Shown piece by piece: positions 44,208 through 44,467 of a DNA stretch of 64,000 bases. The translations under genes were made by a program, and so were the position numbers. The notes below the pieces were generated by a model. That model was not told the DNA's origin. It made no database searches and worked only from the letters and a program-made list of their open reading frames with translations. Origin of the DNA: Candidatus Hydrogenedens sp. (GTDB taxonomy: Bacteria > Hydrogenedentota > Hydrogenedentia > Hydrogenedentales > Hydrogenedentaceae); NCBI GenBank assembly GCA_049968235.1, contig JBMFRC010000007.1:32001-96000 (forward strand), given 5' to 3'. Position 1 is the first letter of the stretch. Every line of letters begins with the position of its first letter.

Positions 44208-44330
44208 TTAATCTACGGGTTCTTTCCCTGTTAATGCAGAAAAGAAATCCGTTATAATTTTGCTTACAAAACCTACTAAATAATCAATAACTTTAACAAT
44301 GATATCTTTTAGCATTAAATTAAAATCCAT
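44208..44330 (-). CDS. small peptide 2 (40 aa, MDFNLMLKDIIVKVIDYLVGFVSKIITDFFSALTGKEPVD), amphipathic/hydrophobic
   Basis: Not in the ORF track because it is under 60 aa. ATG preceded by AAGGAGGG with 7-nt spacing. Paralogous to peptide 1, which ends 26 nt upstream. Confidence 0.5.
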   Translation of the reverse strand: MDFNLMLKDIIVKVIDYLVGFVSKIITDFFSALTGKEPVD

Positions 44331-44356
44331 ACTTTTACCCTCCTTTGGTTAGTTGT

Positions 44357-44467
44357 TTAGGCTGATGTTGTTAAACCAAAAAGCGCTAATAATTGGTCTG
44401 TCAGCCAACCGGCTAAAAACTTTACAAATACACTGACAATGATGTTTAGGATGTCTGCTAAAATCAT
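44357..44467 (-). CDS. small peptide 1 (36 aa, MILADILNIIVSVFVKFLAGWLTDQLLALFGLTTSA), hydrophobic/amphipathic
   Basis: ATG preceded by AAAGGAG with 6-nt spacing, the same SD context as the lacZ-like gene. Overlaps, in a different frame, the track's 74-aa ORF 44349..44573, which lacks any SD. Confidence 0.5.
   Translation of the reverse strand: MILADILNIIVSVFVKFLAGWLTDQLLALFGLTTSA

Follow-up and report, generated by a model that had tools for sequence, protein, structure and literature searches.

We analysed a stretch of 64,000 nucleotides from Candidatus Hydrogenedens sp. (contig JBMFRC010000007.1 of assembly GCA_049968235.1, positions 32,001 to 96,000; hereafter the window), in which two very small genes, here called pep1 and pep2, lie one behind the other on the minus strand and are followed by a gene for a GH5 endoglucanase/mannanase-like enzyme (Table 1). 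The pair had been picked out in a reading of the sequence alone as two back-to-back open reading frames (ORFs), each preceded by a strong Shine-Dalgarno (SD) sequence. The coordinates and translations given for both ORFs proved exact and both SD sites were present as described, AAAGGAG (44480-44474) with a spacing of 6 nt to the ATG at 44467 for pep1, and AAGGAGGG (44345-44338) with a spacing of 7 nt to the ATG at 44330 for pep2.

Table 1. Features of the pep1-pep2-GH5 locus (positions are those of the window; all on the minus strand)
Feature	Position	Description	Basis
Conserved AT-rich block	44598..44636	overlaps the -35 hexamer and extends just upstream of it	
Predicted sigma-70-type promoter	44572..44600	TTGAGT, 17 nt spacer, TATAAT	
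5'-untranslated region (5'-UTR) stem-loop	44504..44530	ATATAACTCC / GGGGTTATAT	terminator scan and consensus fold
pep1	coding sequence 44467-44357; with SD 44357..44480	36 aa, MILADILNIIVSVFVKFLAGWLTDQLLALFGLTTSA	sequence and ORF list
pep2	coding sequence 44330-44208; with SD 44208..44345	40 aa, MDFNLMLKDIIVKVIDYLVGFVSKIITDFFSALTGKEPVD	sequence and ORF list
Intrinsic terminator, copy 1	44149..44191	13-bp stem ATAGCACATAGCG / CGCTATGTGCTAT, then T-run	
Intrinsic terminator, copy 2	44083-44125	orthologue of the single terminator in relatives	terminator scan
GH5 endoglucanase/mannanase-like gene	42951..44066	371 aa, ATG at 44066	

Coding status of pep1 and pep2

From the contigs of protein relatives and from scanning species-representative genomes we obtained 31 loci, which reduced to 17 distinct locus versions. 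All 17 carried one pep1-like ORF with a pep2-like ORF directly 3' of it, and the SD ahead of each peptide ORF was kept in 12 of the 12 versions checked. A hidden Markov model (HMM) of the family found exactly one pep1/pep2 pair per locus without extra copies, and across the 64-kb window it matched nothing beyond this pair. Nei-Gojobori counting in 12 locus versions gave ratios of nonsynonymous to synonymous differences (pN/pS) of 0.17 for pep1 and 0.20 for pep2, as compared to 0.3-2.7 in the five other frames; both peptide frames are under strong purifying selection. Pairwise dN/dS of the peptide frames was 0.05-0.2. Synonymous differences in these frames were near saturation (pS 0.64-0.76), and third codon positions were variable in 29 of 31 codons of pep1 and in 35 of 40 codons of pep2. 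On this comparative evidence, both small ORFs are almost certainly real protein-coding genes.

The sequence-only reading had pointed out that an ORF list reported, over the same DNA, a 74-aa ORF in another frame, and had regarded conservation of that frame in relatives, at the expense of the two small ones, as the outcome that would speak against the pair. The 74-aa ORF is present at 44573-44349. It is open in the window only; stop codons interrupted it in 14 of 14 other versions examined, that of the closest relative, Ca. Hydrogenedens terephthalaticus (locus L015), among them. The Ka/Ks-type comparison that had been proposed thus gave the opposite outcome, the two small frames being conserved and the 74-aa frame broken. 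Judged by sequence comparison, the 74-aa ORF is spurious and not a coding gene. The pair had also been called unannotated, which is not so for some public assemblies, where gene callers list both peptides. Relatives of pep2 are named 'hypothetical protein' in metagenome-assembled genomes (MAGs) at NCBI, and pep1 was uncalled in several of the public assemblies examined.

Properties of the two peptides

Neither peptide has a signal peptide or a double-glycine leader, in agreement with what had been seen by eye, and conservation of the peptides begins at the initiator Met. AlphaFold2 models built with the family alignments, one peptide each, gave one uninterrupted helix in either case, spanning residues 2-29 of pep1 (pLDDT 86.7) and residues 3-34 of pep2 (pLDDT 84.5). 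Each peptide is therefore predicted to be a single long helix.

The two helices differ in character. The hydrophobicity of pep1 (grand average of hydropathy, GRAVY, 1.53; best 19-residue Kyte-Doolittle mean 2.18) is, by calculation from its sequence, that of a transmembrane helix. The corresponding 19-residue maxima were 2.50 for TisB and 0.74-1.29 for delta-toxin and the phenol-soluble modulins (PSMs). The hydrophobic moment of pep1 over its whole length was not significant (z = 0.8); hence, of its earlier description as hydrophobic or amphipathic, the first part holds and the second does not hold over the whole length. A narrow polar stripe (D5, N8, S12, K16, G20, T23) is conserved along pep1, D5 and K/R16 being invariant, and the peptide ends in a short and variable tail with many Ser/Thr residues. 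The amphipathic helix that had been proposed for pep2 was borne out by an 18-residue hydrophobic moment of 0.57, a whole-helix z of 2.8 and the modelled helix, and the pep2 tail LTGKEP is invariant within the clade. The net charges of pep1/pep2 are -1/-2 in the window, -1/-3 in locus L010 and -5/-5 in the distant locus L022 described below.

An offset of 4 residues aligns the pep1 and pep2 families with no gap, and the two peptides are about 31% identical. Comparison of the two profiles with hhalign gave P = 5e-4, and the profile score was reached by 9 of 20000 column shuffles, so that the similarity goes beyond composition and paralogy is likely. The alignment behind the earlier claim of a tandem duplication was thus reproduced, and the two peptides are probably paralogous, which is short of proof; convergent helical periodicity is also possible.

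Signals for transcription and its termination

The predicted promoter matches the consensus at 10 of 12 positions and is conserved in close relatives. The AT-rich block next to it showed a mean pairwise identity of 0.89-0.92 among six relatives, as compared to 0.67-0.88 for coding DNA, and is a candidate for an UP element, an operator or a regulator binding site. No second promoter-like site was found on the minus strand from 44614 to 43800, and there was none between pep1 and the GH5 gene.

The stem-loop in the 5'-UTR lies about 25 nt ahead of the pep1 SD and has a U-rich stretch 3' of the stem. It formed 9 pairs in the consensus fold of 10 sequences, with weak covariation (1 compensatory pair and 3 pairs with one-sided G-U changes), and could act as an mRNA stabiliser or as an attenuator. 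The global fold was not significant (z = -1.7), and no conserved structure sequestering the SD was found, the sole conserved 5' structure being upstream of the SD.

A terminator directly after the peptides had been noted earlier and was confirmed here. In the window it is duplicated, a point that had gone unrecorded: the two copies form a direct repeat (D1) with a period of 66 nt and are 98% identical, and the duplication occurs in this genome only. The terminator consensus had 11 pairs, 7 of which showed compensatory changes, followed by T5-8. A hairpin is found between pep2 and the GH5 gene in most relatives, and most of the more distant versions have hairpins at this place as well. With two terminators in series in the window, read-through into the GH5 gene should fall further.

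The GH5 gene and the neighbourhood of the pair

The protein encoded downstream of the pair has a GH5 catalytic domain (Pfam PF00150, 6.7e-28, 98.4 bits against a cut-off of 23.5), and its best relatives of solved structure are the Thermotoga maritima endoglucanase 1vjz (5.7e-84) and the bifunctional mannanase/endoglucanase 3w0k (8.9e-73). The mechanical ORF for this gene (GTG at 44162, 403 aa) crosses both terminators; the real start is the ATG given in Table 1, about 20 nt past the T-run of the second terminator, which had been missed in the sequence-only reading. From this start the N-terminus reads MERRTFLRQL, and M-x-RR-x-FL was invariant across the 11 orthologues aligned. The RRxFL motif resembles that of twin-arginine translocation (Tat) signals and suggests export; from its sequence, the GH5 enzyme is probably Tat-exported.

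The GH5 gene follows pep2 in 15 of the 15 Hydrogenedens-clade versions whose contig reaches that far. In the nine relatives measured, 61-96 nt separate pep2 from the GH5 gene, and the two genes stay neighbours even where GH5 identity has fallen to 51%. The genes on either side vary. At least four kinds of upstream neighbour were found (GH39-like/NadE; a Glug-domain protein; an ADP-ribosyl-glycohydrolase; an unknown gene with MntP), and two kinds of downstream neighbour (a beta-propeller/Flg_new_2 protein, or an epimerase with GT2). Since the flanks vary and the three genes stay together, the stable module consists of the promoter, pep1, pep2, the terminator and the GH5 gene. The link between the peptide pair and GH5, which had escaped earlier notice, is thus tight in the Hydrogenedens clade and withstands rearrangement. 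Across loci the neighbours were glycosidases, NAD synthase, epimerase, GT2 and beta-propeller proteins. No ABC exporter, immunity or accessory gene was present in any related neighbourhood examined, so that the lack of an adjacent transporter or immunity gene, first noted for the window, extends to the related loci.

Three further features were recorded in these surroundings. The divergent GH39/GH1-like hydrolase gene at 44907-46880 of the window, whose counterpart in L001 lies at 7368-9351, is a single 657-aa ORF with an N-terminal signal-like sequence, as it is in L030. Several related assemblies have instead two pieces of 58 + 548 aa or a shorter form of 561 aa, for which a frameshift, a pseudogene or a misassembly could account. 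Another small ORF, 45 aa long and also conserved (MFDMKEIIKQTGSDGDDYLYITPTTIIMWFIGLFLVIFAAINGFF), has an acidic head and a transmembrane-like tail; in relatives it is found downstream of the GH5/beta-propeller genes (L001 15891-16028, L010 16414-16551, L026 15808-15945), and it is absent from the window. The sole Rfam match above the gathering score in the 64-kb window was one tRNA at 61477-61550 on the minus strand.

Distribution of the family

A search with pep2 returned 40-aa proteins 83-90% identical to it, and pep2 homologues were 65-95% identical, the pep2 of Ca. Hydrogenedens terephthalaticus being 95% identical. Profile searches added relatives of pep1 and more distant relatives of pep2. 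By source name, the carriers are Candidatus Hydrogenedens and MAGs of related Hydrogenedentota, recovered from anaerobic reactors. Two of the loci, L019 and L021, come from MAGs titled 'uncultured Nitrospirales bacterium' and yet show Hydrogenedens-type synteny; these MAGs may have been assigned to the wrong taxon.

An exhaustive profile search covering 1.84 billion representative proteins gave 10 matches at E <= 0.001, of which 5 were family members; the other 5 were noise from a WLTGWLAD repeat. In this search the family was restricted to members of the Hydrogenedens clade and one distant pair. The latter was reached through one of the five family matches, P0017, which comes from a different, GC-rich organism (locus L022, GC 0.58). 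There, at 7775-8114, a 39-aa pep1-like ORF is followed by a 37-aa pep2-like ORF and then by a terminator of its own. This pair is flanked by a CHAD-domain gene on one side and a convergent DUF6786 gene on the other, and the GH5 gene is absent from the locus.

Viral contigs, scanned with a DNA pattern, gave 0 matches to the pair, and plasmids gave none. No meaningful relative of any member was found in Pfam, NCBIfam, PHROGs, PADLOC or the sequences of the PDB. Matches to DARPin and Vma12 were low-complexity noise, and PHROGs gave weak matches to unannotated families only (best E = 0.009, 2 of 13 members). It had been stated that no family could be assigned by eye, and the Pfam, NCBIfam, PHROG and PADLOC models, with 13 members compared to Pfam, likewise matched none. 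As far as sequence comparison goes, pep1 and pep2 make up a new, narrowly distributed orphan family of small proteins, and the family is of a familiar general kind, that of short hydrophobic or amphipathic helical peptides.

A possible membrane-embedded peptide pair

Our preferred explanation, held tentatively and at somewhat less than an even chance, is that pep1 and pep2 form an abundant two-subunit peptide pair embedded in the membrane, with the GH5 enzyme made by read-through of the terminator. The two genes would be co-transcribed and their products would act jointly, a notion supported by the pair being obligate even in the distant L022, which lacks GH5. The pep1 helix, of about 30 residues like that of pep2, would be embedded in the cytoplasmic membrane; pep2 would be its amphipathic partner, packed on pep1 or placed at the membrane interface, and the two would build a hetero-oligomeric assembly within the membrane. 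Most characterised bacterial proteins shorter than 50 aa and as hydrophobic as this are membrane proteins with larger partners (AcrZ, KdpF, CydX, MgtS). The strong promoter, two strong SDs, 5' stem-loop and strong 3' terminator would together give a short, abundant bicistronic mRNA. As there is no room for a GH5 promoter of its own, the enzyme gene would be reached, in the Hydrogenedens clade, solely by read-through of the terminator, and in that case the peptides would be made in large excess over the probably Tat-exported enzyme that they would probably serve.

Several observations weigh against this explanation. No basic residues flank the hydrophobic stretch in either peptide, so that the positive-inside rule is not obeyed, and the net acidic charge of both peptides is seldom found in integral membrane proteins. 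Taken alone, pep2 is borderline hydrophobic, with a Kyte-Doolittle maximum of 1.53. Charged residues that might pair one peptide with the other differ from lineage to lineage; K24 of pep2, for example, is replaced by D in the L010 group, and the pep2 of L022 has no Lys. Finally, the distant L022 pair has no GH5 gene nearby, so that any link to GH5 is specific to a lineage and could amount to no more than hitch-hiking in an operon.

Three other ideas were considered and dropped. Fixed salt bridges between the peptides (K16-D16, D24-K24) were abandoned as the charges vary across lineages. A precursor of a ribosomally synthesised and post-translationally modified peptide, with a conserved leader and the variable S/T tail of pep1, was set aside because no modifying enzyme lies nearby and the tail shrinks to as few as 2 residues. 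Light-harvesting alpha/beta-like peptides were rejected because His is lacking and the organism is not a phototroph.

Alternative explanations

The sequence-only reading had likened the peptides to leaderless two-peptide bacteriocins, PSM-like peptides and type I toxins, and each of these likenesses weakened on closer comparison. If the peptides were PSM-like amphipathic peptides exported without a signal peptide, with a surfactant, matrix or cytolytic role and maybe working alongside an exported glycanase in biofilm formation or substrate colonisation, one could understand why conservation starts at the initiator Met with no signal peptide, and why tandem paralogues, each with its own SD, sit on a short transcript with signals for strong expression. 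The clearly amphipathic, acidic 40-aa helix of pep2 also resembles the beta-type PSMs in size and charge, and psm genes are likewise unlinked to their exporter, pmt. We nevertheless regard this as unlikely: at E <= 10, none of the 13 members matched the Pfam families Staph_haemolytic (PF05480), PSMalpha (PF17063) or Delta_lysin (PF05372), hhalign against delta-toxin gave a probability of 1%, and pep1 is too hydrophobic (GRAVY 1.53 against <=0.57 in the PSM comparators) besides not being significantly amphipathic. Moreover, the idea comes without a known exporter, and Hydrogenedentota are, we infer, probably diderm, so that the outer membrane would add a barrier. Somewhat more doubtful is a bolder version, in which a PSM-like or viroporin-like two-component helical peptide system, the first described outside Firmicutes, would have abundant leaderless acidic peptides in a membrane or extracellular structure working with the Tat-exported endoglucanase, for example by gating its release or organising a glycan matrix, while a leaky terminator would fix the ratio of peptide to enzyme.

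Leaderless two-peptide bacteriocins that permeabilise the membranes of competitors are also small helical peptides encoded in tandem on a strong expression cassette, and small-xxx-small motifs such as S31xxxG35 of pep2 recall the helix-helix contacts of two-peptide bacteriocins. The analogy fails on charge, both peptides being net negative (-1 and -2, and -5 each in L022) where known leaderless bacteriocins are cationic and rich in Lys/Trp, and it fails on the absence of immunity, ABC-transporter and accessory genes from the neighbourhoods examined. The locus is, besides, chromosomal, syntenic and slowly evolving rather than strain-variable, and has no plasmid or viral matches; we consider a bacteriocin improbable. 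A type I toxin, or another self-targeting membrane toxin under antisense RNA control, is to our mind slightly more improbable again, even though pep1 resembles TisB in length, hydrophobicity and polar stripe. Consensus SDs at optimal spacing are kept in the versions checked, which speaks against the repressed translation of a typical type I toxin; the promoter is close to consensus, and no conserved structure sequesters an SD. The near-saturated synonymous sites (pS 0.64-0.76) argue that no overlapping RNA is constrained. No antitoxin RNA in Rfam was matched, a relaxed threshold yielding only miRNA-precursor-like chance matches to the long hairpin of the duplicated terminator, and the two genes, which never occur apart, are single-copy in each locus and keep their syntenic position. 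We give the least credence to an export or release device for GH5, be it a holin-like pore or a split TatA-like component, although small hydrophobic genes do stand immediately upstream of a glycoside hydrolase gene as in holin-endolysin cassettes, the end of the pep1 helix (LLALFG) recalls the hinge motif of TatA and is followed by a separately encoded amphipathic helix, and the GH5 enzyme carries RRxFL. Neither a holin family of PHROGs nor TatA of Pfam (PF02416) was matched, and the pair was absent from the viral contigs scanned. The GH5 enzyme has an export motif of its own and belongs to no known muralytic family, its relatives being endoglucanases/mannanases, and in L022 the pair exists without it. 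What probability remains falls to functions outside those listed here.

Significance and comparison with known systems

The locus adds a well-supported pair of small-protein genes, of a kind that is usually missed, to the uncultured phylum Hydrogenedentota. It offers a test case for the annotation of small ORFs by comparative codon analysis, for an operon design in which a leaky terminator would set stoichiometry, and for a possible partnership of small membrane peptides with exported glycosidases. If the peptides were secreted or pore-forming, PSM-like or viroporin-like biology would be extended to a new phylum. What we have is a solid new family and not a new mechanism, and nothing found demands one.

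Among known systems, the enterocin L50A/L50B-type bacteriocins likewise consist of two paralogous helical peptides of about 40 aa, encoded in tandem and leaderless; the pep pair differs in being anionic, in lacking immunity and transport genes and in not being on a mobile element. The beta-type PSMs and delta-toxin of Staphylococcus are also short, start with formylmethionine, have no signal peptide and come from tandem paralogous genes with their own SDs on a short, strongly expressed transcript, and pep2 shares with the beta-PSMs a helical, amphipathic and net acidic character. There is, however, no sequence or profile similarity to them, pep1 exceeds them by far in hydrophobicity and, taken as a whole, is not amphipathic, and the phylum and probably the envelope are others, with no Agr or Pmt context known here. 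With TisB-type toxins and small pore-forming helices, pep1 has in common a very hydrophobic helix of about 30 residues with a charged/polar stripe (D5, K16, D24), which could line an oligomeric pore; unlike theirs, its SD is strong and free of sequestering structure, nothing points to an antisense RNA, a different partner peptide is always present and the syntenic locus is stable. TatA/TatE combine a transmembrane helix, an FG hinge and a basic amphipathic helix in one chain, whereas here two chains provide the two helices, and pep2, the amphipathic one, is acidic.

The class of AcrZ, KdpF, CydX and MgtS resembles the pair in size (<50 aa), in the single hydrophobic helix and in standing in an operon with the larger protein served. 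It differs in that there are two peptides here, in the partner, which is an exported soluble-type glycosidase and not a membrane complex, and in the missing flanking basic residues. In design only, and by analogy, the locus may be compared to the pufBA-hairpin-pufLM and nisA-terminator-nisB arrangements, in which abundant small peptides are encoded first, a hairpin follows and the downstream genes are reached by read-through; there is no homology to these operons, and read-through in the pep1-pep2-GH5 locus is suggested by the spacing and the missing promoter.

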